Below are positions 1 through 63,169 of a stretch of 64,000 nt of DNA, piece by piece. The stretch's first letter is position 1; each line of letters starts with the position of its first letter. The stretch covers positions 73,284,001 through 73,348,000 of the forward strand of contig NC_092346.1 of the NCBI RefSeq assembly GCF_963676685.1. The letters run 5' to 3'. The DNA comes from Mytilus edulis. Lineage: Eukaryota. The translations under genes were made by a program, and so were the position numbers. The notes under the pieces were generated by a model that was not told where the DNA came from, did not search any database, and saw only the letters and a program-made list of their open reading frames with translations.

Positions 1-1031
1 CATGGTTCGTATCGGGGCCTTTTATAGCTGATTCACGGCCGACACTCGGCTAACCGAGAGTTTGGTCGGTTAATCTATATTGGGTATGCGGCTATATCGG
101 CGGTTGGTCTGTTAATCGGGTTGGCTAAAGTCTGTTAATCAGGTGTTATCGAGAAAATCATTGCAAGGTCATTATGTTTCATTGTATAACTTTTTAATTA
201 TATTTATATCATAAAAACTATTCATGTCTGACAAAACGATTTGGAGTACTGAATCCAGTGGTGTAATTATTTTTTGTCTAGCTTTAATAAACGATCTATA
301 AAATGAAAAGGCGAGTTACTCATCAGTAAATTTATACACATTTTACACACACAAAATGTACACAAAAATGACACGTTGGTTGAGTTTACTTGCATGCAAT
401 ATTTTGAACATCGAAAAAAGACAGGCATTATGTTTGTTTACCATATTAACATCAATATGTGAAAAATCTACACGAAAAACTGTATTTTTGGTGACATAAA
501 TCAATTTTTGATAAACGTGTGGTCTGTTAATGGGTCGGATGTATAAAACTCGGTCTGTTAATTGGTCTGTTAAGAGTTATGAATGACATTACAAGCATAA
601 TTTAATTGCTATATGGGGTGTTATCTGAATAAAGGGATAGACTCAAGATTAGTGGCTAGAATATATGGAAACAACACATGAACAATGAAACATAAGTTTA
701 GACAATGGAATCTGAAATTGATAGAAATGGTTTCAAAAAGTGTAATATCAAAGTAATATTAATTTCAAAAGACAATACTACCGGAAATAAACTCCTGGTA
801 GATACCAGGATTGAAATTTTATATTTACGCCTTATATTTACGCCAGACACGCGTTTTGTCTACGAAAAACTCATCAGTGACGAAAAAAATGTTTAAAAGG
901 CCAAATAAAAAACCGAAGTTGAAAAGCATTGAGGAAACACAACTAATACCGGCGTCACACATCAGCGTATAGCACTGGCGTGTTCAAAATCATTTACGCT
1001 GCCGATACGCTAGTAATTTTGGATGCATTTA

Positions 1032-14095: not shown

Positions 14096-17000
14096 TTTTT
14101 TTTTTATAATTTCAAGAATAATGCGAAATATTGATTCCACAAAAAGTCTTTTTAGAGTATAATTACATAAAATTGAAGTCAAACAGCTTAATCAAGTACT
14201 CTCTATAAAATGATGGTTATCAAAGGCATCAGGCTTAAAAGTTGATTCTCCAGACGCGCGTTTCGTCTACATAAAATTCATTTGTGAAAGCCACACAAGT
14301 ACAAAGTTGAAAAGCATTGAAAACCCAAAATTCCCAAAAGTTGTGCCAAATACGACTACACCGCATCATTTACTACATCAAGCAATGAGATATTTTCGAA
14401 GTTTTTTTTAAGTAAGGTTTCAAATCAAACGAATAATACTCAAGTCTGAATGCCATTTTGCCTGTGTAGAAAGGCGACAATAGTTAACAGGTGTTCAATA
14501 TTTCTAAATCGATAGAGAGAAACCAAATCCGGGTTACAAACTAAAACCGAGGGAAACGTATCAATTATAAGAGGAAAGCGATAGAACAACAGAAACACTG
14601 AAGCTTATAGAAACAAACAACTGCAATATTTCTGACTTGTTGCAGGACAATTATAGGAACCTGGTTTTATGGCTAGCCAAACCACACGCTTAACGGCAAT
14701 ATTAAAACTATCACCGATTTTTTTTCCGCAACTACCTGTTTATGTAGATTTTAGACAAACAGTTCCGACAAGTAATTTGTAAGATTTTGTATCAATTATA
14801 CTTTTATTTTTACGAATATCATAATAAAAAAAAAACAACAAAAAAAAACAAACAAACAAAAACAAAATAAAACAGAAACAAACTTACTGTATCGATGATG
14901 CTTACAGTTTGAGTCGAGATGTATTTCTAAAAGTCGGCCAAGTGAAGTCATACCTTTGCGACATTGATGAATCGGTAATTAGATATGTATTTCAACAACA
15001 ACAAAATTTAATCGTGGATAAAATTTGAATAATAAATAACGATCAAATAAATATATGCCAATCATTTGTGTTACAAAGCAATATGTATCAATTAAAAATT
15101 TATTTACGGAATATCGAAACTCCAAAGGGTTAAAGAAAAACAAATGTCATACATCAGGCACATGTATTTATAACTGTATAATTTTGTTGACTAGATGTTT
15201 CTATCCTTTATGATATTTTCATTATGATTTAATTGGTCAAACCAGAATAAAAGTGGAGGCGTTTCAACGTGAGCGTGTAACATTATCCCATGCAAATCTA
15301 TTGAAAACAGATACATTAATTTAAAGAAATTCACAATCCTTCCGTATACGTGACCCAACACCCAACTAAAAATGCAAAACATCCTGTTACTTTACCTTTA
15401 TATTTTGAAAATGTGGTAGAATTTAGATATTGTCATCTTGGTAAGGTTGTTTGTACCATAGCTTCATGGAAAGTGCAAAAAAATAATTAAAAATGTCAAT
15501 TTATATTATTCACGAAACAAAGTACTAGTAATAATTAAATATACGTTTTACCAATCATGTTTGTAAATTTTATATTTTAGTCTACGCATAAAACTCAGTT
15601 GTTCTGTGTATGCCTGTTCAAAACCAGGAGCCTGTTACTAACTTATTTCTTTTCTTTTTGCTGTTGCGAAAATATTGTTTTATATATTTGCGTCAAAATC
15701 ATTGCACAAGCAACAAGTGCATCTGTCGCTCCTTTGATACTAAGTCTTGATAAACCATATAGTCTTTGGTGTCCGTCAGTTTGTAGAAGTCGTCTCTCAC
15801 CGTTTGTTTTCAAAACAGATTACAAAACTAGCGGCCCAGTTGGAATCAACTTCTGTCATAATATGTTATTTTCAACAGTTTTTTTGGTTTTAAAAATGCA
15901 TCAAATCCTCTTTTTTTTAACGACCGTGGCCACTGAAATAGTTAATTGAATATATTAAAGTAAACAAAATAAAAAGTTTGTCATGACCATCTTTGTAAAT
16001 AAAAATCTAATTTTAGTCTATAGTAGTTATCAATTATACAATCAATTGCCAAACGAAGCCAATATACTATAGAACTGATTTTTCTTCTTCTTATTCTTCT
16101 GATTCAACCAGACCATAACTTTTATTATTCTAACATTTGCGTATGATATTTGGCATGCAAATGGAATATCATAAACAGTGTGTCACATATCATCTTGATC
16201 TGCATGTGCCCTTGCTTTTGCTTCAAGGAGCGTACATTGTTTATCCTTTTGTGTATGCTTTTGATATATAGCACATCAAAATGATGCGTAACATACCACT
16301 GAAGATCACGTTTGACTTTGCTACGGGATTTGTATATATTCATCCCGAAACCATGTATAATCTTGCTTGCCATTTCAAGAACTTGAAAGTACATTTACAG
16401 GTTTGCATATTATATAAGCAATTGTGAATTTTACCGTACATATTTTAAAAAACGTTGACGTCAATATCTTGATTTTTGCGTACCATAGATAAGTAGCAAT
16501 AATTGTTTGTGTGCTATTCAACCCCCTTATATCATTAATTTTACAACAACGAAAAGACTTAACATTCCCAACCATTACACACGCATATGCGTTTTATTTT
16601 TATTTTCCATGCTCCAGAAGGGTAGGCACACCACTCCATATGTGACACCTGTAACTTAGTTTATGAGTAGTATGTGATATCTTAATTTTGCTATTATTAT
16701 TATTGGTTAGAACCCTTCAACTAAGATAAGTCGGGTAGGACTGATACACGAACTTCTAAAATTTAATTTGAAAAAATGATACTAAGTATAGAAAATATCT
16801 CTATGCTAGCCTCTACGATGTAATGTCATTGGGAGGGGTACTATTCGCATCAGATCGTTTTTTGTAAATTACCAGGAAAGGTCATTATAAAAAAAATACC
16901 TCAACTTGTCAAATACCTGTTTTACCACACAGAATCATTGCTCAATGAGTCGTTGAATAACAAAGACCAAAACGGAAATTATATCCAAAATAATTTACAT

Positions 17001-29489: not shown

Positions 29490-30391
29490 CCAATGGGAAC
29501 AAACTGTGCCCCTCTACTTGCCGACTTGTTTCTTTATTATTATGAGGCTGACTTCATGCAGGAACTTCTTAGGAAGAAAGATAAGAAGTTAGCAATATCC
29601 TTTAACTCTACTTTCCGCTATATAGATGACGTTCTTTCACTAAACAATTCAAAATTCGGTGACTATGTGGAACGCATCTATCCCATCGAATTTGAGATAA
29701 AGGATACTACAGATACAGTTAAGTCGGCTTAATATCTTGACTTACATCTAGAAATTGACAATGAGGGTCGGTTGAAAACAAAACTTTACGACAAAAGAGA
29801 TGATTTCAGCTTTCCAATTGTGAACTTTCCATTTCTAAGTAGCAACATTCCAGCAGCACCTGCATACGGGGTATATATCTCCCAATTGATACGATATTCC
29901 CGTGCTTGCATTTCCTATCATGATTTTCTTGATAGAGGGTTACTGCTCACAAGGAAGCTATTAAACCAAGAGTTCCAAATGGTGAAGTTGAAATCATACC
30001 TTCGTAAATTTTACGGACGCCATCACGAGTTGGTTGACCGTTATGGAATAACCGTTTCACAAATGATATCGGATATGTTCCTTACGTCGTAACTACAATC
30101 CCCTTCCCTTTCATGAATGTGACCTACCGAATTAAGACTATTTACCGGATTTGTAATCACATAAGCAACACGACGGGTGCCACATGTGGAGCAGGATCTG
30201 CTTACCCTTCCGGAGCACCTGAGATCACCCTTAGTTTTTGGTGGGGTTCGTGTTGTTTATTTTTTAGTTTTCTATGTTGTGTCATGTGTACTATTGTTTT
30301 TCTGTTTGTCTTTTTCATTTTTAGCCATGGCGTTGTCAGTTTGTTTTAGATTTAGGAGTTTGACTGTCCCTTTGGTATCTTTCGTCCCTCT
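29490..30391 (+). mobile_element. 5'-truncated Penelope-like retroelement (RT core and thumb, no C-terminal endonuclease; Naiad-type layout) with 3' UTR
   Basis: One frame at 29490-30092: PMGTNCAPLLADLFL...FRYIDD...YLDL...LYDKRDDF...GVYISQLIRY, with a single premature TAA at 29730-29732. TTTACTAC is duplicated at 29482-29489 and 30392-30399. Confidence 0.8.
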
Positions 30392-30559
30392 TTTACTACA
30401 AGAATCGTTCTAGATTTGTGAATGAACAAAATCACAGCTTCGGCAATCGTCTCGAAAAAAGTTTGTTGGCCACTTCCTTCGAATGTACTAGGAGCGGATT
30501 TGATTGAGAGACTACAGTTGGCTAATGCATTGTTAAATGTTGTAGAAAAATTAATGACG

Positions 30560-35200: not shown

Positions 35201-37147
35201 TACAACATTTCAATAGTCGTTTATCTTTTGAAACTATTTAAGCAAGAACAATTCTCATTCAAACAAAAATGATTTAACTGATCAAGATGGAATGAAATTA
35301 ATTGCCAGTCGATCTTTTAAATCCTACTTGTATACTACATTGGAATGTATATTGAAGATCACGTATAAGGGAAATCTTATAGTTCTCGTCGTTTTTCTGT
35401 AGTACATTATCTATAAAACTTCTAATATGCATACGAAGCATCATATATACGTGATTATGCACTTCATTATAACGAAAATTCGTCAGATTAGGAATGGACA
35501 AGTTTATCAAGTGAAATGATTCAACAGAACATGCGATAAGTGTATTCAGTAAGATGAATTATAAGGGACCTGGAAACAGCTAATAAAATTCCATAGGATG
35601 CCGAATTTTGAAATGAAGATCCAAAGCAAAAGTTGAAAAAAGTTGGAAAACGAATTTCTAAAATATGGACAAAATGCGATGTTTTGACGAAAGTTTGAAA
35701 CATTATATGCAAGACTACGATTATAGTGTTTCGACAGATTCGTCTCATTTAATCAATTGATTTATCTTGATGACATTAAAGCATGAAAAGACGATTCATA
35801 TTTGTGTCATATTCTAAACCTGAAAACCTGGGATTTTTTTTTACCTGAAGTAGGTCTTTTTAATTAATTTTGTGTGCAATTTTACCACAATCCAGACTGA
35901 AAGAACGATTTATTTATCAGCATAATTTAAATTGTTTAGTGTATGGAATTAACTGGGGATAGTTGTTTTGTTTTGCATCATTCAGTTGTGCATTTTTTTC
36001 TTCTTCTACAAGACTTTTAACTTTATTTATTATCTTAACAAATAAAATAAAAGATTTTTATTTGGTGTTCAATATTTTTTTTCGTTACAAAAATCATTTT
36101 TAAATGATTTTTTTTATGTTTGCGAGTCAAAATGTTCTAAGAAATCGAAGTTTTCGAGAAACACTTCTTGGAAATTAAAATGAACATCCCAGTAACATAA
36201 AAATTTTTGGAGTGTGAAATTAAATGTTAAGGTAAGAGGTATTTCATTACGAATGATATCGCGTGTCCTTAAAAAAAGAATGATAGAGGGGTATATCTGG
36301 TTAAAAAAATTTGCAATAACGGTACACCGATATCATCAGCATAATGGTCAGTACTTTGATACTGACTTGATTGAAACAAATCTATCTGAAATTTAAAATT
36401 ATGAATAAACTAAGGTTTCAACTCCCTAAGGCAAAGTTTATCTTCCATTTTTTTAAGACCTTCATATTCTGTAAGCTTTCCAACTGTTTCAGTTCTTATA
36501 CACCATTTGAATACGATGATATAGTTCGGCCACTTTTAACTGCTAATCTGTTTTGTGTAATGTAATTGTGACGTCACAGGCATGCCTGAACAGTTTTTCA
36601 TAAATGGCTTATTGACATTTTTTTTTTGGGTAAACTTAACTATGCACAATAGCCTTAACAACGGATATTTTTTTCGCTTTGTTAATAAATTGTGATTATA
36701 TGTCATAACGGAAAGGCTATATATATGAATTTATTCTGCACATGTGCTATTTTTGCAATATAATTGCATTGGCCTTATATTCATATGTGATATCAAATCA
36801 CTGCCGTCGAACGACTTGTTTTTTTTTACGGTGTTTATGTGTTTATGGGGTGTTTTATATATGGCGTCAACAAACAATACCGGTTATTTAGTATTCCATG
36901 TATTGACGTGATCTAAAACAAATTTTTTTTTTAATTTCCACCTTGATACATTTAGAAAATATTATGAATCTTAGGTCCGATTCCCTCAGTCAAAGATGAT
37001 CTGAGATAACCTTGGCTATTATTTGCGATCGCTTTTGGTCATAAAGCTCTTCTTAGTTGCATTTGGCAAAACTTTTAGGAATTTAGGTACTCAATTCTCT
37101 TCAACTTCGTACTTTATTTGGCCTTTTTAACTCTTTTTTGGATTCGA

Positions 37148-37191
37148 GCGTCGCTGATGAGTCTTTTGTAGACGAAACGCGTGTCTGGCGT
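37148..37191 (+). ncRNA. Type I hammerhead ribozyme motif (isolated retrozyme-family copy)
   Basis: gcgtcg-CTGATGA-gtct(tttgt)agac-GAAA-cgcgt-GTC-tggcgt; catalytic core intact, predicted cleavage after 37185. Confidence 0.75.
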
Positions 37192-39751
37192 AAATACATA
37201 ATTTAGTCTTGGTTTATTCACATCTTCGGTACTTTTACACCTTTGGTTTTGAGTGTTCCTGAGGAAGGTTGATCTTATAAAGCGCTTCGATAGCATGACA
37301 ATAAGATTCATTTTAAAGATCTTGGTCGTAACCGCTTATGGTGGACTATTACATGTGGTTCACAATGGTATCACCAGGTCAGTAATAAGTACTTCGATAT
37401 TGACAAGTTCTGTAACAAACCTTCTTTAAGTTCCCCTTGATAAATTGAGAAACTATTATGAAACTAAGGTAACAACTATCACAGAAAAAGTTGATCTTAG
37501 ATGCAATTGGCTATAATTTTAGATCGCGTTGGTTATGTTGTATGAAAAAACTATCTGCCAGAGTTCAAATGAAGTAAATTTAAGCAATTATAAACAACCA
37601 TACGACCTTAAAAAACCCCACATATATTCGGCTATTCAAGGCCCGGACATGAAATATGTAAACAGTAGACAATTTAAACGAGAAAAACTAACGGCCTAAT
37701 TTATAACAAAACATTTAACTAAAAACACATAACCAACTACAACCACTGAACTACGGACACCTGACTTGGACAAGCTCATAAAAATTGTGGCGTGGTTAAA
37801 CATGTTTGTGAGATTTCAACCATCCCCTAACCTGTAACAGCGGTGACATAACATCATGAAAAACAAACCGTAACAATCAATTGCTAGTGACTGAACTCAT
37901 ATATCACTACGTGAAAAAAGAATAAAAAAGATACCGAAAATTTCAAAAAGGGGTTGATGGTGTGTGTTGGTTGACAAAGTCGAAATTTAGGAATTAACAG
38001 ACTGCTTGTGTGATAAACATCTGTTATATTGCAGAAAAAGTACAGGCATTTCACCAAGAAAATGGTGGATTCATCCTGGTTTTGTAGTTAGCTTAACCCC
38101 CCACTTGTATGACATTTGGTTATAGTTCGGTTATATTGACTAAAAAAGAAACATACATAATAGGTTGATGTGAACATAATTTGGACCAAGCAGCCAAATA
38201 TTTTTAAACGTACATTACAGACTTGCAACACAATTGACTTTAAAAAAAACCAACTAGTTTTACATTCATATCGTTCTACGCTTTATTATCGGTAGCTCAT
38301 AAAAGGTTTGAATTAAAGTCATAAACAGTAGAGAAAAGTCCTTCTGCAAAGCCAAAAACAGACTATGAAAAATTTCAAAGCAGCAAAAACACAGGAAACA
38401 TTTTAAGTCTTGCTTTAAAAATATTTTCCACCAAGAAAGTGGAATAAAACAGAAATAAGACTTTTTCTTTACTTTTTGTATTTCTACGTTGTTGTTTATG
38501 TGAATTTAAGTAAAAGGGTATAAAGTGACTGCACCTGGGATCCACATATTTGTATCATTGCAACATCTCAGCTTCTAGACTCGTCATGAAATCTACAGGT
38601 TCATTCTATATATATGCATTGAGTTCGCTACATAAAAAAAAAACTGTTGACAAGTAGCACATAATAACTTACATCAACACAAAAGACACAAAGTATCGAG
38701 CTTAGAGTACTCGCAACTACTGAAATTTTATTTAAAACGAGACCCATTGGTGGCCTTTGGCCATTTTCTGTTCTTTGTTCGGGTTGTTATCCCTTTCATA
38801 CATTGCCTATTTCCATTCTAAATTTAATTTACATAATTTCCACGAAATGATTCTGTTCTCAGATTTTTAAATTTAATGTTCTTAAACTTGATAAAAATTA
38901 AAATGTTCTTACGTGTAGCATAGATAGTCGAAAAGTCATAGCTTTGGGACATTTTACGAATATAAAGGATCACCAAAAGATAGTATATTTCAAATAAAAC
39001 TGAGAATTGAAATGGGAAATATGTCAAAGAGACAACGACCCGACCAAAGAGCAGAAAACAGCCGAAGGCCACAAATGGGTCTTAAACACGGCGAGAAAAT
39101 CCTGTTTTCGGAGGCGTTCTACAGCTGGCTCCTAAAGAAAAATGTGTACTACTAATAGTTCAATAATAATGAACGTCAAAAGCTCGTTTGCTAGTATTTC
39201 GTGCAAAAATGATTTTTGTCAAAACAAATAAAAGCATTTAAAAATAAAACTAAAAAACAAATATAAGGAGTTATATCTGAGTTTCTGTATGTATAATGAC
39301 AAACAGTATCGAGTTTACAACTTTGGTCAGTATCTATCAGATGTTGAAAAAATTCCTGAACCAGAGGAGATTGATGCGATTGATGATGAAACTGCAGTTA
39401 CTGAATAATTACATTGATAACTAAACACGTGCTTTCACTTTGCTGGAATTACATTTGAACATGATCGTAGATTTGTATGCTGCATTGAAGACCTGTTGGT
39501 GACCTTCTGCTGTTGTCTGTTCTATGGTCGGGTTGTTGTCTCTTTGACACATTCCCCATTTCCATTCTCAATTTTATGGTTGTCAGCTTGCATACCTCAT
39601 TTGAGATACAGTTTCATAAACTATCCAATTGAAATTGAATAGACTTTTTAGATATTGGTAATGAAAATAAAGTTTATTACTTAATGCAGAAGATCTTGTA
39701 TTATTTACATAAATAAAGGCAACAGTAATATACCGCTGTTTAAAATCCATA

Positions 39752-43401: not shown

Positions 43402-44817
43402 ATGAAGTCAATTATCTGTTTAATATTTGTTTTCATCGCCGTAAATGCTGCTGGTAAAAGGAAATATTATCCTCAACCATACACCGGCGGGAATGGCTAC
43501 ACTGGTGCTGGAAATATGTACAGTGGAGTAAACGGTTACAGAGGTGCACCAAATGGTTATACTGGTGCACCTGCTGGCTACACTGGTGCACCAGCTGGCT
43601 ACACTGGTGGAGCACCTGCTGGATACACTGGTGGAGCACCTGCTGGATACACTGGTGGTGCACCTGCTGGATACACTGGTGCAGCACCTGTAGGCTACAC
43701 TGGTGCACCAACTCCCTATGTTGGTGCACCAACTCCCTATGTTGGTGCCCCTAATGTATACACTGGTGGTAACGCTGGTGCACCTGGAGGCAGTGGTGGT
43801 GCTAGCTACATGCCAGTGGTAAATGGTTATCCTGGTAATGTTGCTCCTTATGACCCAACTGTAGGGACCGGAAGTGGAGCTCCATATGACCCAACTGTAG
43901 GGACCGGTAGTGGACAACAAGGACAAGGAGCTAGTGTAGATGTTGGTAAATTGTTATCAGCTCTCGTTAATGTACTCGTAGAAAGCAAAGAAAAAGCTCC
44001 CGAACCAACATACAACGGAGCAGTAAATGGACCTGCTTATGACCCATTGGGTCAAGGAGGTGCTGGTGGACAAATGGGTGCAGGAGGTGCTGGTGGACAA
44101 ATGGGTGCAGGAGGTGCTGGTGGACCTGCTTATGACCCAATGGGTGCAGGAGGTGCTGGTGGACCAATGGGTCCAGGAGGTGCTGGTGGACCTGCTTATG
44201 ATCCATTGGGTCAAGGAGGTGCTGGTGGACAAATGGGTGCAGGAGGTGCTGGTGGACAAATGGGTGCAGGAGGTGCTGGTGGACCTGCTTATGACCCAAT
44301 GGGTGCAGGAGGTGCTGGTGGACCAATGGGTCCAGGAGGTGCTGGTGGACCTGCTTATGATCCATTAGGTCCAGGAGGTGCTGGTGGTCCAATGGGTCCA
44401 GGAGGTGCTGGTGGACCTGCTTATGACCCATTAGGTCCAGCAGGTGCAGGAGGTGCTGGTGGACCTGCTTATGACCCATTAGGTCCAGGAGGTGCTGGTG
44501 GACCAATGGGTCCAGGAGGTCCTGGAGGTGATAGACCAGCAGCTGGTGGACCAGGTGGCCAACCCGAGCCTTGTGACCCTGCTGATCCATACTGTCAAGA
44601 GCCATGTGATCCTAATGATCCATACTGTCAAGAACCATGCGACCCTAATGTTGAATACTGTGGTGGTCCATGCGATCCAAATGACCCTGCTTGCCAACCC
44701 GATGTTGGTCCAGTCAATGGTGACTTAATGCCATATGATGGTCAAGGTGGTCAAGGTGGTCAAGTTGGTCAAGGTGGTCAAGGTGACCAAGGTGGTCAAG
44801 GTGGTTATAATGGTTAT
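43402..44817 (+). CDS. Gene 2 coding exon 1: secreted Gly/Pro/Ala/Tyr-rich repetitive structural protein (~542 aa in total; silk/elastomer-like, putative shell or byssus matrix protein)
   Basis: Kozak ccaccATG; signal peptide MKSIICLIFVFIAVNA; GYTG(G)APA repeats; GGAGGP(M/AYDP) repeats; four CDPxDPxC-type units; GQG repeats; phase-0 donor TAT|gtgagt at 44817/44818. Confidence 0.92.
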
Positions 44818-47035: not shown

Positions 47036-49069
47036 ACAGACTATATGAATGATATTCAGTCACGAAGAACTGTATTATATTGTAAAAGTGTAAATAAACT
47101 AATTGCAGCATACTATACTTAATGTTCCTTGTCATTTGAATATCAACCCTTACTTTTCGTCTGTTGTCTATGATATTTCCAAGTGTAATCTCTTAACTTT
47201 GCATTCAAATTTGAGACAAGATAGATTTCAATATTGTCTTGAGGTTTGACGTGTTGTTCCATATTATCAACAAATAGACTACCATTATAACACACCTTTT
47301 CGCTATTTGTCCGCCATTTATGGATATCACCCATGTTCCCGTAAATTTTTGGCGTCACAGTACAAAATATCTGACGCCACAATTGAAAAGTGATTGTAGT
47401 ATGACGTCAATAGTTCAAGCGGTAAAAATTCTCGGGTCAGCCGGGATTAGCGATAAGGCGTATGGGGAAATAATAGTTGTAAATAATCAATCGAACCACA
47501 CTTGCTCCACTCTCTGAATGAACAGGGACTTGTGCCGGTGAAATGTTTTAAATGTATTGAACTATTTTTTGTCAATATTTTTGTCAATATTTTGTGAGAT
47601 TTTTCTAAAAAACATTTTGTAAAAATCCTTGTACGATGATTCAATTATAAATTTAGTTTTCAAGACACTTTTACAACAGTTCAATAGGTTTTACTTACGA
47701 TTTCATTTGAAAACTTATTACCACAGAGATAAAACGAGCTTGTGATTAGATATATATGAAGTTGTGGTATGAGTGCCAATGAATCAACTCTCTCACCAAA
47801 ATCACAATTTGTAAAAGACGTTATCTAGATTTTTTCCATCTTTATGAAATGTTTAAACCAAAGGACAGTTAATTGATCATTGCAATTGGGTCATTTCAGA
47901 ACAATACAAGAATAAGAGTTAGATTTGAGAGTGTTTTGTTCATAATGATGTCATCCTTCGAATCGACATATATTGCCAAAAAAACAACAACACCCAACAT
48001 AGCCACTTCTATAGAACCTAGTATTTGCTGCATTGTTCGTTTTATCCTTTTATTAGATTTTGCGGTCATACTTTGTGTATTTAAGGGCCAATATTAATCC
48101 CTCATGAACCTGTTCAATTCTCACTCAAAACAGAACCTCCTTCCATAGGCTACTATAAATTGATGCTTTATAACATTGCTTATCACATACGGGTTTGTCA
48201 TCTATTGATAATATATTCCGGAGATGTTATGTCATTGAACAGGAAATTTAAATGTAATATAGTGGAATCTAAAAAAAAATTAAATGGTCTGGCCATTTAG
48301 CACCGTTCATTAATTGATGTTTATGATAATAAGTCATGAATAATTATGTTTTTTTCCCTCGTTTATAACATAAACATCAACGAATGAAATTATGAAACTA
48401 ATCAATTCTAAAGTACCTACATCCAGGGTATTAAACAGAAATCTTCCTATTTAGCACATACATGTAGTTAACTTAATCAAACAATCAAAGCACAAACAAA
48501 CCGGTAACGTGTATGCACCACATATAAACACATCACCGTTTTCGTGCATGAAAAGATATTAAAAAGGTTAAATTATATGGTAAAAGATATTCTTTATATA
48601 GATATCAGAAGATGTGGTATGAGTGCCAATGAGACAACTCTGCATTTAAGTCACAATTTTTAAAAGTAAACTATTATAGGTCAAATTACGGTCTTATACC
48701 CAGAGTGTGGCTCACGCCGAACAGAAAGCTATAAAGGATTTCAATTTTGTTTAGTGTAAAACGTTAAAAATCCACGGTCTAATCTATATAAAAAAAAGCA
48801 AGGAACGAGAATCACTTATGAAGCACATGAACAAACAATAACTACTGAACATCAGATTCCTGACTTAGGACAGGTGCAAACTTTGCAGCGGGTTTAAACG
48901 TTTTAATGATACCAAACATTTACATTATCTGACATAATAGTGTAACATTACAACATAGAAAGACACACTATCAAATATCAACTGAAATAGCTTAACTCAA
49001 TTAAAGACGTAGTTGAAGAGAATTGAGAACCCAAAATTCCGGTGTCGTTAAGTACAGCTATGGTAATTA

Positions 49070-49405
49070 GTTATCAAAGGTACCAGGATTATAATTTATT
49101 ACGCCAGACGCGTGTTTCATTTACATAACTCAGCAGTTACGCTCGGATCAAAATATTTATAATGCCAAACAAGTATAAAGTTGAAGAGCATTGAGGATCC
49201 AAAATTCAAAAAAAAGTGCCAAATACGGCTAAGGTAATCTATGCCTGGGATAAGTAAATTCTTAGTTTTTCGAAAAGTTCAATGTTTTGTAAACAGGAAA
49301 CTTATAAAAAAAGACCATATATTTGATATTCATGTCAAAACCGAAGTGCTGACTACTGGGCTGGTGATAGCCTCGGGGACGAAACGTGGCTCGTTTCGTC
49401 TACAT
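49070..49405 (-). mobile_element. Single degenerate retrozyme-family unit, inverted
   Basis: Reverse complement of the 352-bp unit at 55069-55420; the hammerhead core at ~49101-49143 is mutated. Confidence 0.75.
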
Positions 49406-51423: not shown

Positions 51424-52178
51424 TTATATGCTCTCGTCGCTTGTGCTTTCTAAGTCTGATTCTTCGTCATTCTCGGAACATGTCTCAACCTCAGTGTTAT
51501 CAGAATCAGAGCTATCTTTCGTACAAAAATTTTCATAAGCTTGTATGTCGACATTGTGAAACCCCTTATTATTCCGCCGTTCACTGCCGATTGCAGGTAT
51601 TACTGATTTTCCATTTGGTTTTGAAACAATTCGATCCCGTCGCAAAGACTTTTTTATTTTCCCTTTTGCTTTGATTTTGGGAGAAAGCTTAACAGGTGGA
51701 AGTGGTACTGATCTTAGATTTGATCGACGTGGTGGAGGGAAACGCTCTTTATCAAACTTGTCGGTAACCGGTTCGAGCGATCTTCTTGGAAAAGCTGATC
51801 GATCATATCCAGTGTCCTGTCGGGAGGATGATAATCCTTTCATCAGCTTTGCAAACGTGATAACCTTCTTAAATCTTCTTTTCGCTTCCTGTTGTCTCTC
51901 GAATGGAAGCAAGTCGTCAAGTGTAAAGCCATTCTTCTCCAATAATTCTTCTACGGTCATATCATTGACTGGGTCACGTACGCACAAAGAGGCCTGTCCT
52001 TGTTGAAATAAGATCCTAGCACATGAAATAAATCCATTTCTAGCAGCCATAACTATGGGTGTAAACCCCTCTTTGTTTCCATTATCAACTTTTAAACCTA
52101 GCCTCCGGAAGTGTCGAACCAAGGAATTGGTTCCTATATCATTACCAACCATTGTACAGTACAGCAATGGACTGTTTC
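51424..52178 (-). CDS. ANKRD63: ANKRD63-like ankyrin-repeat protein, exon 3
   Basis: ttcag|GA AAC AGT CCA (G-NSPLLYC, phase 1). Ankyrin repeat NKEGFTPIVMAARNG; LVRHFRRLGLKVD resembles the ANKRD63 LVRSFRRLGLRLD segment as recalled. Basic then acidic disordered tail. Confidence 0.85.
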
Positions 52179-53239
52179 CTGAAGAAAAAGAAAGGGGATT
52201 AATATTTGCATTGTAGTCATGATGTTAATGCTCTCATTTATATCATTATTTACAAAAAAACACGCGTAAATGTTTAAAAAAATATAGTTGAATAAAATAC
52301 CTTTATAGTTTAATATATATTTTTTTCTTTATAATATAACTTTATGTGAGAGAAAAAAAGAACAGAGGCAAACAATCACTAACCAGACATACTTTGAAAA
52401 AAAAATTATAGAAACTATTTGAAAACAAAATGAATGAAAACCTTAATACTTATTTGCGATTCAGTTCTGTCCAGTACTATACACAAAATTTCACATCACA
52501 TTTTATTGCATAAGAAAATAACCAACACAGGAAGTTAACCAATCAAATTTATGCCCCTTTTTCCCTTGTGTACAAGCTTAAGTAACCATGCGACCTCATG
52601 CTTCCAAAATATTCTACAGAAACACCACAAAACAAAATGGTGTTTTGAAACTCACAAGATATATTTTTATGATTCAGAATTGTCTTACGACATTAAAATG
52701 TAGGACAAATTCAAGGGAATAATTTTGTTCTACTCTTTTCTCTTTTTCGTTTGCAACTGTATGTGACACTATGATTTTGTCGTATTGTACCTATAACACC
52801 CTTTATTAAAGGGAGTTTTTTTATATCATTATTTACTACGTATATGTTTTTAAGAATACAGAAAGCCATGACAGTTCATACAGTTGGCCGAAATGAAAAA
52901 GAGCATTTTTTTTTTATTTTGCTGTATTCTTTTAAAGATTGTTTATAGTCCATATTACGTATGAGCAGCTCATGCTTTTGAAATGACAAAAGGATGACAG
53001 GAAGTACTACAAGCGACATTATTTGTGATTTTTGGTGCAACTTTAGTATTATTATTGCAATTTCGAAATGTATAATATGCCAACATAGTTAATTCTTCAA
53101 ACTTTTCTCATCATTTGATTTGTAATTGCATAATTTATCAAATGAGAGAATCATGCAGCCATTCGTTCTTATAGCAGCCGCTGTTCCTTAAAGTAGATTT
53201 TTAAAAGCCACACCATAAACCTTGCAGTATTGTACTTAC

Positions 53240-53417
53240 CTTTATCATCTGTCGTGTCGGGATCTATGTCTCTGTGTTTAACAAAGACTTCTACAAGGTC
53301 GTTGCATCTTTTTTCACAGGCGTAACTCAGTGGTGTTCTACCATTATCATCAGCAAGATTGACGTCTCCGCCATGAAAGAGTAAAAGTCGGGATACCGAA
53401 GTACGTCTCAACTCCTC
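53240..53417 (-). CDS. ANKRD63: ANKRD63-like ankyrin-repeat protein, exon 2
   Basis: ttttag|GAG GAG TTG ... AAA G|gtaagt; encodes the ankyrin repeat LLLFHGGDVNLADDNGRTPLSYACEK. Confidence 0.85.
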
Positions 53418-53756
53418 CTAAAATGTTAGAATTGATACATCAAAATAGCGTTAGTCTTTAACCTTCCTATCTGTTTTTATAACATCAAGTAATTACAAGA
53501 TTAAGGTGATTTAACATATACTTTTGTTTACAATGACCCATTACTCTCTAATAACACTCTATGCTTAATATTTAAGACAGAAGTAGGCAAATTATATTGA
53601 TACTGGCACCGTAATGGCTTGAGTAGTTTTCGATTTTTCTTGTCTTACCAGTTTAAAATCATTTTTAATGAGATACTTCTTTCAGATGAAATCTATTATA
53701 TTCGTAGCGCTTTTCATCCTACATTATTACAACTTAATTATTTTATGTATACCTAC

Positions 53757-54023
53757 CTTAATAGTACATGCTACAATCAAGGGAGTTTTCCCGTTGAAAT
53801 CTCTGGCATTGACAATATTTCCTGGAGATGCTTCAAGAATAAACCTCACTAAGTGTTGTTTTCCTTTTCTAATGGCATCGAACAACATTCTCCCATCTGT
53901 GTCATCATCAAACTTTTCCTCGTTATTTGACATCAGGTTTACTAAGGAACGGATGTAAAAAAAATCAAATAGTTCACCTCGCTGGTTAGAATGTTTCTGG
54001 TACTTCTTTAAAGTAGTGGTCAT
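53757..54023 (-). CDS. ANKRD63: ANKRD63-like ankyrin-repeat protein, exon 1 (start could instead be the Met at 53933)
   Basis: LFDAIRKGKQHLVRFILEA...NARDFNGKTPLIVAC; phase-0 donor AAG|gtaggt. Spliced product is about 399 aa. Confidence 0.8.
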
Positions 54024-55030
54024 TTTTACGCAAACTTTATGTCAAATACTTTGCACGCTTCCAATTTTTCAACCAGACAGAGAGATAACAATCATTTCCC
54101 AAGTAACACGTCAGAGAACAGTAAGGCATGGTACAATCATACTTTACACGCTATAACTAAATGTGATTTTCATTTTACTAATGCAACAAACGAATGTATA
54201 TCTTTTATATCCTTGGTTTTAAGTCAACAATAACAGATATCAAATCACGATTCTTCCTTGTAAACTCTTGACTTTTCATATCTTCAATTAATAAGATTAT
54301 GTTTACAGACATAAAATCAACTAATATGTGTAACAGATTTTTTTATTTACCAATTAATACACTTCTCTTAACCTTTCTCTTCTATTTTCTTATTTCCGTC
54401 GCTTGCAAGGATAACCCTTAATCAATATACATCATTTTATGCTTTGCACTATTAAATGTATCATGTATCTCTTTATAAATAGTTATAAATTCCTTTTTTT
54501 TTCTCTAACAACACCGGAAAAAACTTGACGATAAATTATTTTCAGACGTACCCACAGCGGTAAATTCGATACTGTTTAGATAATTTGTGTGCCTCTTATC
54601 CCAGGAATAGATTACCTTAGCCGTATTTGACACAACTTTTTGGAATTTCGGATCCTCAATGCTCTTCAACTTAGTCTGACGTACTAAATTATAATCCATG
54701 CTCTTCAACTTAGTCTGACGTACTAAATTATAATCCTTGTACTTTTGATAACTGTTTACACCACTGGGTCGATGCTACTGCTGGTGGACGTTTCGTCCCC
54801 GAGAGTATCACCAGCCCAGTAGTCAGCACTACGGTGTTGACATGAATATCAATTGTGTGGTCATTTATATAAATTTCCTGTTACAAAACTTTAAAATTTT
54901 CACAAAAACTATGGATTTTCTAATCCAAGGAATAGATTACCATAGCCGTATTTGGCACAACTGTTTTGTTTCGGATCCTCAATGCTCTTCAACTTTGTAC
55001 TTGTTTGGCTTTAAAACTGTTTTGATATGA

Positions 55031-55074
55031 GCGTCACTGATGAGTCTTTTGTAGACGAAACGCGCGTCTGGCGT
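55031..55074 (+). ncRNA. Type I hammerhead ribozyme
   Basis: Stem I gcgtca/tggcgt; CTGATGA at 55037-55043; stem II gtct/agac; GAAA at 55057-55060; palindromic acgcgcgt stem III; GTC site ending at 55068. Confidence 0.88.
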
Positions 55075-55382
55075 ACTAAATTATAATCTTTGTACTTTTG
55101 ATACTTATTTACACCACTGGGTCGATGCCACTGCTGGTAGACGTTTCGTCCCCGAGGGTATCACCAGCCCAGTAGTCAGCACCTCGGTGTTGACATGAAT
55201 ATCAATTGTGTGTTCAAATTAATAAATTTCCTGTTACAAATCTTTAAAATTTTCGAAAAACTATGGATTTTCTTATCCAAGGAATAGATTACCATAGCTG
55301 TATTTGGCACAACTGTTTGGTTTCGGATCCTCAATGCTCTTCAACTTTATACTTGTTTGACTTTATAACTTTTTTGATATGA

Positions 55383-55426
55383 GCGTCACTGATGAGTCTT
55401 GTGTAGACGAAACGCGCGTCTGGCGT
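55383..55426 (+). ncRNA. Type I hammerhead ribozyme
   Basis: Same fold; CTGATGA at 55389-55395, GTC site ending at 55420. Confidence 0.88.
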
Positions 55427-58094
55427 ACTTAATTATAATCCTGGTACCTTTGATTTAGATTTATTATAAAAATATTAGTAAAATAAATATGTTAGCACAT
55501 AAACTTGCGAAAAAAAACATCCAGGGAAAGGTTCAATAAAATCTGGTTAATATTTGTGTAAGAGATATTGTGGACACAATATTTATACCAAACTCTAACT
55601 TTAAGAATTTTTTTTATAATTGTATATGCATGCCAGAATCAATAGGAGGTACACAAATATTGTATTTTGTAAAAAATATAAATATTTATGATTAGTGAAA
55701 TCAAAATACTGGTTTGGAGAGTTGAATACAACCTGATATAGATATCATAAAGTCCATGTTTTGGTATTTGAAAACAAAAAAACACCCAGATCGACATTTA
55801 AACCAAAGCTGCAAAATCTAAGAGAGATTCTGTGAAAGTTTTATCGAGATCCAGGAAGGAGTTTAGGTTGAGCTGTGAATGCAAGATGTGTTCCCCTTTT
55901 GTAGATATTGAAAACTAAATTACTATGAACAGTCAAATACTTAGGGCTTGGGTATTTCTCTCTTGTTTAAATCACCACCTGAGAAAAAAGTTTAATGTAC
56001 GACGGACAATCAAACAAAATAAAATACTATATAGTACTTTGTGACATTGTAGATTAGTAGAACTTTAAAACATAAATCATGATACAAATAGTTGATTTCA
56101 TGTTTGCTCATCTAAAATATTTAAATCTAGCTTTTTTACACAAGATTATATTTCTTTTTGTAGTCTATAGACATTTCTCAGCCACGAAAGAAACATTTTG
56201 CTTACATCCACGTCATTTTAACTCTGATGCATATTTATCTTCAAAGCAATACATCATATATATTTGTTTGTGTGCTTTAAATACGACTGATATGCAGGAA
56301 AATAACAAACTATGGATAATAATGTCATTAAATCGTTGTGATTATTAATTTACCCTAATTATGTTACATATTTGTCTCGTCAACTGTTTATTATGATTGC
56401 ACACAACGAAATACATGAAAATTGTTTGTCAATATTGCCTCATAGTGATCTGCAGTTAGCTAGAGATGTTGGTAAGAAACGAGTTCATAATCTGTATCAT
56501 CATACGGTCACCATTATCTTGTGAATTTTAAATATTTGAAACTATTTTACAGTTAGACATGTTTTATGTTTAAAGTTTGAATGACAGGTCAATTTTTGTT
56601 GTCTGTAGTATATTTCTATAAGGTTATTTGAAGTCAAGTAACAATACACCTGAATATTATTGAAAAGTTTCTATTTCATATTTAATATTGAATGATTTCT
56701 GTTATGGTGAAAAATTTGAGAATGGAATATTCAGGTCAGTTTTCAACCTTTGGTCCGTCGGTGCTCGAACTAACGACAACTATCACAGCCTAGGCTATCA
56801 GTCTACCAATCAGACAATCTGTTTTGTTTTATGGCCTACGGGGAAAATATGTAGTACTTGTATACTTACATCATAAATAATATTTTTAAATACCGCCTAC
56901 AAAGTTAAATTTTTGAGTTTCAGTATTTTTTTAAGTATATAATGGTACACGATGTTTGTTATCAGCTATTTTTGAATTCTCTAGTGAGGGAAATACGTTT
57001 AAAATCTACACTATGCTTAGATCATCCAGTTGTACAATATGTTAATTTCATTTCATAATATTGATATTAAGGTAGTCCTCAAATTGCAGATATCAAATAG
57101 ACCGTCTCTTTGTATATTGGCGTTGTTTTTTGTTGCATGCTATGCCAGTGTTCCGGTTTTTTTCTTTGTTCTCTTCTTATTGTTGATGTGTTTCCCTTGG
57201 TTTTAGTTTGTAATCCAGATTTGTTTTCTTTCTATCGATTTATGACTTTTGAACAAAGGTATACTACTTTTGCCTTTTTTTAAAGACCTATGTTTTTTTG
57301 GTTTTTTTCCATTTAAACACTTATGTTTATTCCAACAGTACAATTACGAAGCAAACATATGGGGCGCAATAAAACATTATTTCTAATAAGTTTGATATAT
57401 GAAAGTCATATTTTCTAAATTTCATAAGGTTGCAATGAAAATAGGTTCAAGTCATACTGATTTATGTACATGAACGTCATTCGAATGTATTTTTATGCGT
57501 ATTGGTTGAACGTCATGAAAATAAGATGTGGTATGATTGCCAATGAGATATGCAAAAGACCAAATTGACTAATGGACATAAGAAAATAAGTCCAATGCTA
57601 CTTACAATTAAAAGAAACATAATCAATGAATATTTTTCTAGTATTGTTAATATAGTGTTTTGTATACAAAATGTATGTCAATTAATTTAATCAGCTGATT
57701 ATTCCCTGTGCAGTCAGTGGATTGTAACAGGGTACGTCAGGAGAAGCTTGGAATCTTGATGGTTTATTTTACAAGCAATATTTGATGAATAAAATTATTA
57801 TGTAGTTAAAAAAAAGAAAAAATTGATAAAAATGTAAGCAACAGTATGTCATCGTACGGCACAAAGTCTAAGTCTATATTTTGGCATGAAAAATGAAAAA
57901 TACTAATATCGAGGAAAATATTACCTGAGTTATGTAAACTCGTAACAAACGAAAAACAAATATAATAGGTAGCAATAAACGACAATCACTAAATAACAGA
58001 CTCCTGACGTAGACACCTTCAAATAGATATCGGGTTATATATGTTTACAAGAGCTCTACCCTCCCTTTTACATAAGACAATGGCGTAACAGCAC

Positions 58095-60228
58095 TATGAA
58101 AGGCTGTTCATGTCGAAAACCCGATAAAGTAACGCGTTAATATATTTTTAACGCGTTTTTTAATTATTAAAAGCGTTAATCACTAAACTACAAAAAATTA
58201 GCGAATTTTTTTTCTTCTTTCACCTTAACAACGTTTTAAGTCGTCAGATTTACTCGAAACTTACTAAATGAAATGGCCAGATGTGTCATATTTTCGTCAA
58301 TTAACGCGATAAAGTTTACAGATTTTTATCACATATATATATATTATCGTCATTAATTACTTATCGCGTTTGAGTAAGAATTAACGCGTTAAATGAAAGT
58401 TTAACGCGTTAAATGAAACTTTAACGCATTAAATACAACTTAAACGCGTTTTAAATGCTATTGTAACGTAAATACTACTTTATCGCGTTAAAAGCAACTA
58501 GATAGGGTGTCTTCCTCAGTCTTGGATTTTGAAATACCAGAAAACAAGGTCTAGATCTTTGACAAAATGTGCAAATTTTTAGATTAGTAGGTAATTCATG
58601 TGCAAGAATTTTCATTATAATATAGAAAAATGCCATGTTTTATCATATTTATGGTTGTATTTAACAAAAAAAACGAATACTTATGTTTGAATCCACTTTT
58701 TCCAACTTTGCCAAAAAAAGGGGAGGCAACTCAAATGCAAGGGCAGATAATTCAGATAGTGTTACTTTTACAATAGAATGTGTTAGGAATTTACCCATTT
58801 TATTATGTAGCAAGAAAACAAGTTCGGTGACACCCCTTTTTTTCATTTTTGTTTTTTTTTATATATAAAAGCATAATATTGGAGCTATCTCCTCATATTT
58901 TATCTCAAAATTAAATGGTGTAGTTTTCGTTTTATTGCGGAAAATTAGGTTTTCCATGCATAATCAATACAAAATCGATCAATTTTGCACAACCTGTAGT
59001 GTGAAATTAAGTCCCGTGATCCATCCTTTTTATTAATGTTTTTAAACAAGCAGGATATAAACTACAATTTGGCAAATTATTAAAAAATTCTATGGATTAT
59101 AATTTAGACACCCCATCTGCCATGAATGCAACTTTAACGCGTTCAATGCAACTTTAACGCGTTAAATACAACTTTAACGAGTGAAATATAACTTTTACGA
59201 GTTAAATATAACTTTAACGAGTTAAATATAACTTTAACGAGTTAAATGCTATTTTAATGCGTTAAAAGCAACTTAAATGCGTTTTTCTGAAGATGGTGAC
59301 AACATATCTATATCTATCAACCAAACATCAGTTAAATATTACCATGGGAAATTGTTACACGGCTGTCAGTCAGATAGCTGAGGACAAATCATAATTTGGC
59401 CTTTTATCATTTTTTTACATTCTGGCGTCATTGATGAGTCTTTTTTTTTTAAAAACGCGCGTCTGGCGCAAATACAAAATTTCAATTCTGGTATCTATGA
59501 TGAGTTTATTTATCAGCTAGCAATCTTGTATGAATTGTAAACATGTATAAAACAAGAGGTTCTTAATAGCATGCATCGTGCATCAAGTAAACTATGCCCA
59601 ATAAGGTTATGAATCTGTGCCAAATGTTTCACTGGTAATAGGGTTAAGCGAACGACCGTGTGATATTGCGGGGGAGGGGGGAGATGATCTATTCTTTATT
59701 TTTACGTCTTACTAAGTCGGTTTTTTTCCGGCATTTTGTACATCTAAATACTGCGTTGTTCTGTCTACTAGGCATGTACGGAGACCATATCATTTTTTGT
59801 TTCCTGAATTTGGCGCTATTATTAGTGCCCTACCTGCAAAGCTCAAAGAGACTTTCTATCTGTCTGTCCGTTCTCTATTCGTTATCAGTCCTGAATTTTG
59901 TCCAAGGTGATGGTTGTCTTTCTGACTGTAACTTCCTTGTTTTATTTTTTATTTTCATTGTGTCGCGTTAAATGATTTTTTTAGCGCGTCAAAACGATGA
60001 TTGAATTTGTTGCGTTAAATGTGATTCATTATGACACATGAGGCCAGTGCAACGGGTATTTTATCGTGATAAATGTCGTTTTTCCCTCACAGGTTAAATC
60101 TCCAACTTAATAATTTCAAAGTTTAACGCGTTAAATATATTGATTTCTTTACGCGTTAAAACTGTATTTATCGCGTTAAATGTTAACGCGTCACTTTATC
60201 GGGTTTTTGACACGAACGGCCTTTCATA
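58095..60228. mobile_element. Non-autonomous TIR transposon (TAT...ATA termini, 6-bp TSD; IS3EU-like) with an internal 20-bp tandem array and nested inserts
   Basis: ~46-bp TIR tatgaaaggc(t/c)gttc(a/g)tgtc(g/a)aaaacccgataaagt; CAGCAC is duplicated at 58089-58094 and 60229-60234; aaatgcaactttaacgcgtt-type arrays at 58380-58500 and 59125-59283. Confidence 0.75.
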
Positions 60229-61784
60229 CAGCACGACAAAAAAACTTCAAACGTCAGTTGAAATAAGTAACAAAAAGACTTATGATACAAAACACCGATA
60301 TAAGATAACTCGCATCTACTGAAAGCTTGTTTAAAGCCAATTGCAACTGATTAATAAATCAAATTCTCAGTTCTACTAGATATTAATCCAATGGATTTAG
60401 TAATAAGCGCTATAAAAAAGACATGTGGCAAGCCGTTGGGAATTCATATGTATCAACAATACGGTAAGGTCCACATTTCATGTTTGCACATTTTCCTTAA
60501 ATTTTGAAACTGATGTCGGGGTGTTGTCTCTTTGTCACGTTCTCAATTTTCATTCTCAATCTTATTCCCTGTTTTAGATATTAAAAAAAGCATTCATAAA
60601 TATTGATAAACATCATTGTTGATATCAAAAAATTATTGTGTCACTATCATATATTTTGTTTGTATAAATAACTGTAAAAGAAAAAAGGGTAATGCATAAA
60701 TATAAGCATCGACATGTGTTCATTACGTTTTATGATTACACATTTAGTCAGTATTTTTTAATTTAATAGTATCAAAATCAGTGACGTAACAATAAAACAA
60801 ATGTACATAGACAATGTATCTTAATCTTAGTGTTCAAATGATAACATTTAAGAGTAGGCTTATTCCAAGGGTCTGTTTCTCATTTGATCATTCAATTGTA
60901 ATGTTAACTGTTATATCGACATGTTAAGCTTTAAATAATATGACAATTTGTAATTTATATCTGTGGTCGCTTTTAATCATTGCTTGTTCTTGGTGATTAA
61001 GGTTTTTATTTATAAATACTAGTATGGGTTGTTGTAAATTTTCTATCCTGGTGTGTATACGTACAGGTTACTATTTCAATATGTAATAAAAAAAAACCTT
61101 AAAAAGCGTGCATATCATATTGATTTCTATGATATGCATAAATACAAAACAGACGTATTTAACAAATAGATTTATTAACAATCAATTATGAATTGCTGAA
61201 TAACGTCATATTATATTAACAACATCATTTAGTAGTTCATCTTCCATTTCCACCTACACAATCATTCGTGTTGAATATATTTCATTTTCCAGTTAGTATA
61301 CTTTACAGTTACTTTCTATCACTTATTTTCCTAGTTTCTGTTTGTTTCTTAATGTATTTAATATTAAAACTCAGCTAAGATGAAATCTTTCTAATCGTTT
61401 TTTAAACATGGACTTTAGTTAAACAACCGATATTGTTTGACTCTTTTCGCTAATATCTGAAAATATAAGAAATATAGCATTTGAAATATATACGTACATG
61501 GGTGTTGTGATAAATGAAAAAAAAAGCACTCGCCATTACTTATAGCTTTTTTTTTTTAAATAAATATGTAATTTGTTACACAATATAGATACAAGCATCT
61601 ACTGAAAACTAAGAAAACTTTTTTATCAATTTTTAACCGCTTGCAACTAAAAAAAGATCTTTTACGGTAGACAGTCTGTCCATTTAAAGGGCCAAACATA
61701 AGACTAAAGAGTGTTATTGCAGAAAACATTTTTTTTCATACAGCCCACGGGTTAACCTTGAAAATTAGCATTACTAATTACTAA

Positions 61785-61965
61785 TCCAGGAATAGACAAC
61801 CTTAGCTGTATTTGGCACAACTTTTTAATTTTGGGTCATCAATGCTCTTCAACTTTGTACTTGTTTGGCTTTATAACTATTTTGGTCTGAGCGTTACTGA
61901 TGAGTCTTATGTAGACGAAACGCGCGTCTGGTGTATTAAATTATAATCCTGGTGCCTTTGATAAC
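61785..61965 (+). mobile_element. Partial retrozyme-family unit with intact hammerhead core (61891-61934)
   Basis: gcgtta-CTGATGA-gtct(tatgt)agac-GAAA-cgcgc-GTC-tggtgt; stem I is weakened by G-U pairs. Confidence 0.75.
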
Positions 61966-63169
61966 TACTATCAGTATCACAAAAAAAAACATGCCGTTAG
62001 TTTAAACTTTATATAGAATATAACATTGAAATTTAATCGTGGCATTTATTGCATATGTGTTAAAAACAATTTGAACATTTGAAAAATATACTGTTACCGT
62101 TTTAGTTATTCAAACAATCAAGTGGTATGCTATCTGTTATTTACACCACATAGTGGGTTATAATTTTTTTAATTTTAATTAAGGACTTTCTTTCTTTTAT
62201 GAGAGTTTGGGAATAAATGACATTAGTTATACATTTAAATAGTTCTCTGTATTTTGAAATTTTAAATAGAAACGTATTAACTTATAAACATTTGACCGTA
62301 ACTAAGATATTACAATACGGTTTTATCATTTTTGGGATATTTTTAACATTGCCAAAAAAAGGGAGGTTTGGCTAGGCGTACAACAAGGTGCAACCCATCA
62401 TTAATTCTAAACAGGTCCCGAAAAAAGTTAGAAATATGGCAGTTGTTGTCAAATAGTCTGTTTATATGTGTTTTTGAGTTTGTTTTTGCAGCAGTTCAGT
62501 CTTTCTGTTATTTCGTTGTTTTCCTTTTATAGTTGATGTGTTTCCCTCGGATTTGGTTTGTGAATTTTATTTTCGCTCAATCGATTTATGACTATTGTAC
62601 AGTAGTAAACTTATGTTTCCTTATTTCTGCTATCGAGTCAATTTTATTCTAATTCTCTGGAATAAAATTAACATGATAAAAAAACTGAAGTCGTACTCAG
62701 AACTTTCTCTGGAATAAAACTCACCTGACACACTAATGGAGGCGTACTCGTAATAAACTTACCTGATAAACTGGTGGAGGCGTAGTCTGGATCATCTCTA
62801 GATAAACTTGTCACAGATGGCACATATACTGCAATTGAAGATTTATATATGTAGATACGTTTGCAAAAGTTTTTCCGGTTTAACATTCATTTTTGAAAAT
62901 CATTTTATGAGCAAAACAACTTTCAATGTTTTGCCTTGGATAAGTTTTCTTTCAATCTGTTTATTATAATAAACGAAACTCTAACAATGCGCATTAATAA
63001 AAAAATTATTATTTGTTCCTCAATTTTTTGCTGACCTGGGACTTTGTTTTCAATACAATATGCTGATAAAACAAACAATAAAAATGATTATTAGTTGCGG
63101 ATAGAACAAGCTTCCCGGAACAGCTGGGAGTACTCTTAGCTCGATACTATGTCTTTATTTGGAAGCAAG

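Follow-up and report, generated by a model that had tools for sequence, protein, structure and literature searches.

A hammerhead retrozyme array in Mytilus edulis and the hairpin that its family shares with Naiad elements

We analysed a 64,000-nt stretch of Mytilus edulis DNA (the window), which carries a tandem array of hammerhead ribozyme repeats at 54594-55454 on the plus strand. The array is best read as an old copy of a mussel retrozyme without long terminal repeats (non-LTR retrozyme). Its family is probably copied by the reverse transcriptase (RT) of Naiad, a hammerhead-less clade of Penelope-like elements (PLEs), which would bind a hairpin of about 60 nt and start just 5′ of it; we put the probability of this reading at about 0.7. 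At the family level, the retrozyme-Naiad link is well supported by sequence, and the copy in the window is an old, ageing, rearranged and ordinary member of a known family. Since 2020, the enzyme that spreads animal retrozymes has been in question, with hammerhead-bearing PLEs as the expected candidates. The shared, covarying hairpin beside a shared insertion end points instead to a different helper, to an exact start site and to a structure that can be mutated.

Retrozyme family and its fixed 3′ end

The first-pass annotation of the window had described the array as a non-LTR retrozyme, an identity that our survey bears out. The units are 352-355 nt long with a GC content of 38%, carry type I hammerheads, with 2-7 hammerheads per array, in keeping with the description of metazoan non-LTR retrozymes (tandem units of 150-450 bp, one type I hammerhead each, GC below 50%). 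No LTR architecture was found in the array, which consists of plain head-to-tail units; no separate search was made for a primer-binding site or a polypurine tract. Judging from its sequence features, the element is of a known kind, the published mussel non-LTR retrozyme, to which it was likened by description.

In the M. edulis assembly searched (1.37 Gb, 14 large contigs), exact copies of the hammerhead end numbered 6,661 with a 24-mer and 8,576 with a 23-mer, and reversed controls gave 0; the figure of 6,661 is a lower bound on the family copies. A best-hit search found 30 loci, from which 21 non-redundant arrays were retained. The 3′ end lies 40-45 nt after the last cut site in 19 of these 21; one array ends at +59 and the copy in the window at +34. 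In a positional sample of contig C1, made up of its first 30 exact matches to the hammerhead end, 9 copies run on into a further unit. Of the 21 that terminate, 19 do so at +38 to +46, and two of the terminating copies have one flank in common. The insertion end falls just before the hairpin. The 5′ ends are scattered among the 21 arrays, and no target-site duplications (TSDs) were detected in them, the longest flank matches being 5-7 nt and off-register.

A second retrozyme family, with units of 365-368 nt, was also identified. Genome-wide counts of a word preceding the 3′ end (8,576) and of one following it (6,141) were compared, and the comparison was discarded as an unclean test, since this second family has the second word too. 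Units are 98.6% identical within arrays (46 pairs), compared with a mean of 95.6% between arrays (775 pairs), and all ten young arrays carry 1-4 private variants that are shared internally.

Six further retrozyme fragments, belonging to the two families, were observed in the window (832-935, 14213-14353, 37052-37213, 49063-49387, 59392-59513 and 61754-61967). Other abundant type I hammerhead families (L072:1885, L063, L065, L039, L078) have a CTGAAGA core and a different palindromic stem III and are unlike both retrozyme families.

Hairpin shared with Naiad elements

Candidate helpers were scored from a GIY-YIG search (150 of 858 candidates) and from a Naiad search (150 of 4479). The GIY-YIG search, together with 20 regions, recovered C-terminal-endonuclease PLEs with other hammerheads, plus one Naiad. 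In the partner Naiad (L068/P0001), the open reading frame (ORF) contains an N-terminal GIY-YIG, CxC, DKA and the RT, and intact Naiad ORFs are present in many copies. Such an autonomous ORF is absent from the array, over which no ORF of at least 80 aa was found.

Three Naiad families of the mussel genome, with proteins of 1053, 1007 and 1000 aa, all have, immediately upstream of the start codon, the same GC-rich segment as lies 3′ of the retrozyme end. The unit from the window agrees with Naiad-C in 59 of 71 columns, with a score of 82; the highest score among 100 shuffles was 30. One family unit matches Naiad at 87% over 63 nt (E 3e-17), and five control PLEs scored 20-33. A fourth Naiad family with the hairpin was found on a metagenome contig. 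The metagenome scan covered 30 loci and contained three close Naiads with a readable 5′ hairpin (families B, C and one new); the hairpin pattern caught it in 1 of the 30 loci, and the other two were read by eye.

Nine named Naiad consensus sequences open with the hairpin segment (CGi, Sglo, Olur, Tgra, Mcor, Mgal, Bpla, Naiad-1_Skow and Naiad-1_Pfla; Craig et al. 2021, PMC8557442), counted among the exact-word matches listed, which cover part of the Naiads in that supplement. The N-terminus of Naiad-A from the present genome is near-identical to the published Naiad_Mgal. The consensus codes are taken here to denote oysters, an ark clam, mussels and hemichordates. In viral contigs, the hammerhead was matched 0 times and the hairpin pattern once, in a GC-rich stretch; we take this single match as chance.

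The register of the insertion ends was counted from the CTGCTGGTGG core of the hairpin, after dropping rows that ran through the motif, lay more than 75 nt upstream, had a repeated flank or were cross-hits to other hairpins. Retrozyme ends fall at -22 to -17 from the core, Naiad-B ends at -23 to -16 (21/23) and Naiad-C ends at -21 to -16 (17/24). Naiad-A ends lie at -46 to -39 (11/13), which becomes -22 to -15 once a 24-nt insert in its hairpin is allowed for. In the second retrozyme family, the ends lie at +44 to +54 from the cut site, yet, measured from the core, they fall at -26 to -16 in 22 of 25 loci. Because this family differs in its distance from the cut but not in its distance from the core, the end tracks the hairpin and not the ribozyme. 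Retrozymes and Naiads are alike both in 3′-end position and in 5′ truncation. The annotation had invoked mobilisation by a Penelope-like RT. A PLE-type helper is indeed likely, and the fixed 3′ end together with the Naiad hairpin, neither of which the annotation had recognised, narrows it to the hammerhead-less Naiad clade.

Five family representatives are predicted to fold into one common bulged hairpin. In the hairpin alignment, 96.5% of the cells are paired and 9 of the 23 pairs are changed on both sides; this pairing was reached by 0 of 500 shuffles, and slid controls gave 36-50%. Single-sequence folding yielded z values of -1.7 to -4.0, and the outer stem had a probability of at least 0.94 in 18 of 20 family-1 units under circular folding. 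We regard the covariation as strong, though not independent, evidence of the predicted fold.

Additionally, retrozyme and Naiad remnants were observed together at several places. Every Naiad-B ORF examined (11/11) is followed by a 3′ untranslated region (UTR) that contains a decayed retrozyme 3′ part ending at +41, with about 74% identity and a dead ribozyme core, partly duplicated in some copies (L112-L120, L128; L158). The Naiad-B 3′ UTR also holds a piece of the Naiad-A 3′ end. One Naiad-A UTR (L111, G000:C5:1347500-1351600) has a 25-nt retrozyme 3′ end inside a duplicated stretch, of which the uninterrupted duplicate represents the empty site; a clear duplication is not apparent there. The window includes a 910-nt Naiad-C 3′ fragment (29490-30399, 98%) and many solo Naiad-B 3′ ends, such as 57150-57282.

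Proposed mechanism and alternatives

Tandem copies would be transcribed, self-cleave and be ligated into circles of about 350 nt, as shown for the repeat family of M. galloprovincialis (PMC7229834). The hairpin is predicted to fold within the circle, and a Naiad protein may then bind it, nick the DNA and prime reverse transcription at a point some 5 nt 5′ of the base of the hairpin. This start point, about 40 nt beyond the ribozyme cut site, is suggested by the insertion ends and by the internal start of an anole PLE, Poseidon PAc; by comparison with the latter, a Naiad RT start about 5 nt before the hairpin is likely. A linear monomer would offer just about 40 nt of template 5′ of the start, so that ribozyme-containing copies would need a circle or an uncleaved multimer. 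Arrays would then be expected to end at a fixed position on the 3′ side and at random positions on the 5′ side, and both are seen. Copying by Naiad through the hairpin would also account for the usefulness of a circular template, and the greater likeness of units within arrays fits one template read repeatedly, as it does later duplication.

The Naiad RT could also copy uncleaved, multimeric read-through transcripts in place of circles. The anole PLE mainly uses unprocessed RNA, and hammerhead cleavage is dispensable for it (PMC11167929); small RNAs that cross the cut site, with ends at 55074-55075, exist in the mussel as well. However, circles make up most of the retrozyme RNA in mussel tissues (PMC7229834), and the within-array identity given above argues against multimers. 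We hold this route to be very unlikely.

The helper itself might be another element. In that case, the retrozyme would descend from a Naiad 5′ end and keep the hairpin for promoter function, RNA stability or export, with hammerhead-bearing PLEs doing the copying. Such PLEs with intact ORFs are present in the genome, the literature names them as likely helpers, and PLE promoters are located near the boundary between the pseudo-LTR (pLTR) and the ORF. On the other hand, none of the five C-terminal-endonuclease families tested as partners matches the hairpin, and such hammerheads as they carry belong to other types. Moreover, the end position follows the hairpin rather than the ribozyme in two retrozyme and three Naiad families, and the paired changes indicate an RNA fold. 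A hammerhead-bearing helper therefore seems unlikely.

Several points weigh against copying by Naiad through the hairpin. A shared hairpin would equally fit common ancestry without current use, or a promoter acting at the DNA level, and, with 150 of the 858 GIY-YIG and 150 of the 4479 Naiad candidates scored, another partner may exist. In plain alignment, Naiad-A scored 33 with a shuffle maximum of 33, which is not significant because of the 24-nt insert in its hairpin, and one control PLE reached 33 against 30 in shuffles through an AT-rich match outside the hairpin. The family-2 loci were picked by a query containing the tail; three of them have a flank in common, and one probably represents an internal unit that has decayed. 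Structure prediction and pair counts drew on largely the same sequences, from only five related representatives. The private variants shared within young arrays suit a circular template and local duplication too. Finally, the copy in the window stops short, at +34, and its unit-2 hairpin has one broken pair.

In its general form, the Naiad proposal would make the retrozyme a two-module RNA parasite, in which a circle-making hammerhead is joined to a Naiad hairpin of about 60 nt that suffices to recruit the RT and fix its start. The hairpin would be conserved from bivalves to hemichordates, with the hammerhead-less PLE clade as helper, and we see an even chance that this broader model is correct. 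A cis-element would thereby be defined for Naiads, which dominate bivalve genomes. If true, the hairpin would be the first loading signal to be defined for target-primed reverse transcription by Naiads, and a portable one.

Relation to known systems

In M. galloprovincialis, about 5,000 such hammerheads in 350-390-bp repeats have been described; cleavage proceeds at about 0.1 per min, and circles are abundant (Cervera and de la Pena 2020, PMC7229834). The two systems are alike in their tandem, low-GC, non-coding repeats of about 350-390 bp, type I hammerheads, thousands of copies and mussel host; they differ in that the accessible text gives no fixed 3′ end, Naiad hairpin or named helper. Metazoan retrozyme repeats are described in a review as lacking a conserved motif that would indicate the helper (PMC7761336).

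Naiad PLEs (PMC8557442) resemble the retrozyme in the 5′ hairpin, the 3′-end register, 5′ truncation and tandem insertions. They differ as autonomous elements of 3.4-4.4 kb without canonical hammerheads, and the terms "hairpin" and "stem-loop" have 0 occurrences in the accessible main text of that study. Poseidon PAc of Anolis (Frangieh et al. 2024, PMC11167929) likewise has an RT start internal to the RNA and a required sequence 3′ of the start, and its genomic ends mark start sites. Unlike Naiad, it belongs to the C-terminal-endonuclease clade, has its own hammerhead and starts inside the ORF; the accessible account of its assays includes no non-autonomous partner. For Xenopus retrozymes, a terminal sequence in common with PLEs has been reported and borrowed enzymes have been proposed (Li et al., bioRxiv 10.64898/2026.07.22.740005). 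That preprint is centred on vertebrates and on similarity to the pLTRs of annotated Xenopus PLEs, and its accessible text holds no mussel, hairpin or end-position analysis. No published link between retrozymes and the Naiad hairpin was found in the accessible literature searched, with Repbase, Dfam and subscription journals outside its scope.

Array in the window

The array comprises the following features.

54594-55454, plus strand: whole retrozyme array (5′ piece, junction, unit 1, unit 2 and 3′ tail)
54594-54675, plus strand: partial retrozyme unit, 5′-truncated at random, covering family positions ~204-285, no TSD
54659-54736, plus strand: 39-bp tandem duplication across a ~70-nt deletion that took out the upstream hammerhead
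54716-55068, plus strand: unit 1, 353 nt, ribozyme at the 3′ side only
54763-54820, plus strand: Naiad-type hairpin of unit 1, double change at 54776/54804 preserving one pair
55031-55074, plus strand: type I hammerhead 1, predicted cut after 55068
55069-55420, plus strand: unit 2, 352 nt, 38% GC, predicted excisable monomer and circle
55116-55173, plus strand: unit-2 hairpin of the Naiad type, with one G-C pair disrupted at 55139
55383-55426, plus strand: type I hammerhead 2, predicted cut after 55420
55421-55454, plus strand: 3′ tail, 34 nt beyond the cut site, 4-12 nt short of the family norm (+38 to +46)

The limits first given for the array, 54595-55453, were essentially right, and the ends are corrected here to 54594 and 55454. 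Tandem Repeats Finder (TRF) reports a period of 352 with 2.1 copies, and units 1 and 2 are identical at 327 of 353 positions (92.6%). The 5′ piece is 94% identical to a family unit over 82 nt and leads on, in register, to the next unit's GTC; about 70 nt, the ribozyme included, are gone. Loss of the upstream ribozyme by deletion, with a 39-bp duplicated scar, had been proposed and agrees with the TRF repeat at 54659-54736 (2.0 copies); the exact deletion junction has 2 occurrences genome-wide, both at this locus, and is therefore private. With a ribozyme on its 3′ side only, unit 1 is not excisable as a monomer. The sole stretch between two intact hammerheads is 55069-55420, and the release of a 352-nt RNA from it, as the annotation had suggested, is predicted. 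The hairpin at 55116-55173 within this unit is likely the RT-binding and start-positioning signal.

In both hammerheads the core bases are complete, stem II has 4 bp and stem I has 6 bp, and the ACGCGCGT palindrome is present; both show the conserved core, stems I-III and NUH cut site of type I hammerheads. Their GTC cut triplets end at 55068 and 55420, 352 nt apart. The Rfam Hammerhead_1 model scores them at 32.5 and 32.6 bits (E ~7e-6), and no Rfam match reaches the gathering score of 34, both lying 1.4-1.5 bits under it. The Rfam match and the inspection of core and stems uphold the earlier description of two intact type I hammerheads with a palindromic stem III. The hammerhead pattern gave 5 matches in the window versus 0 in 100 shuffles. 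The isolated 44-mer ribozyme is predicted to favour an alternative fold, and under circular folding the probability of ribozyme stem I was at most 0.22 in 23 of 23 units. The palindrome had also been read as a sign of cleavage as a dimer. Dimer-dependent cleavage is reported for amphibian hammerheads; for mussels the argument is weak, given the rate measured for a cloned mussel repeat (see above). Two further candidates were rejected. A second hammerhead on the minus strand, suggested by an inverted repeat, had no Rfam hammerhead match, and the region corresponds to the Naiad hairpin. A pairing switch between the hairpin loop and the ribozyme core had a predicted probability of 0 in every circle holding the 9-mer.

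The best relatives of this copy are 91% identical to it, a divergence of about 9%. The two full units have 11 private states in common. The 5′ piece spans 6 of these states and is without 5 of them, and the tail spans 2 and has neither. Because these shared states are mostly missing from the 5′ piece and the tail, the dimer is likely the product of a local duplication, in which one unit was doubled in an already aged insertion. Later decay at the locus would thus include the deletion of the upstream ribozyme, the 39-bp duplication and, likely, this duplication of a unit. In the unit-1 hairpin, the changes at 54776 and 54804 (C-G to T-A) jointly preserve the pair, and the exact 35-mer occurs twice in the genome; the double change may reflect chance or a rare template variant.

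Small RNAs of the family were detected in three raw-read runs of one study, mostly from the ribozyme strand in all three (for example, a mean depth of 76 versus 11 in one bin). In these runs, none was assignable to this copy, from which most reads differ; 15 small-RNA ends at the cut site (55419-55420), in one of the three runs, are no more than a hint of self-cleavage. The flanks of the array had no cover in four RNA sets (three small-RNA libraries and one of contigs), which is uninformative either way. Among the joints listed for four DNA runs, no empty-site allele was found. Flank contigs reach only 8-30 nt into the element, below the 31-nt bar, so that they give no more than a weak hint of the insertion being common to the three organism labels.

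Neighbouring gene and other features

53757-54023, minus strand: first recognisable coding exon of an ankyrin-repeat gene, given for context, with no established link to the array

This ankyrin-repeat gene (51424-54023, minus strand) has three exons and a low-complexity C-terminus that is basic and then acidic. Its in-frame ATGs at 54023 and 53933 place the array 0.57-0.66 kb away, head to head, in agreement with the distance of about 0.6 kb noted in the annotation. Following the divergent transcription suggested in the annotation, the locus might have been co-opted to supply functional circular RNA from the divergent promoter of the gene, as both intact ribozyme cores and the head-to-head arrangement would allow. 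However, closeness to the gene means little: the window alone has five hammerheads and the 1.37-Gb genome more than 6,600 exact copies of the hammerhead end, so that proximity to a gene is to be expected. The divergence and rearrangement of this copy and the zero reads assigned to it also speak against such a role, which we consider highly improbable; nothing seen here connects this copy with the gene.

Among the PLEs, a 755-aa element (L067, G000:C5:20457500-20464000) has an unusually long 3′ region ahead of a minimal hammerhead, and this region resembles a second, zinc-finger-like reading frame. Elsewhere in the window, Gly/Pro/Ala-rich, coding-like tandem repeats with periods of 21-159 were observed at 43530-44805, possibly an exon of a structural or shell protein.
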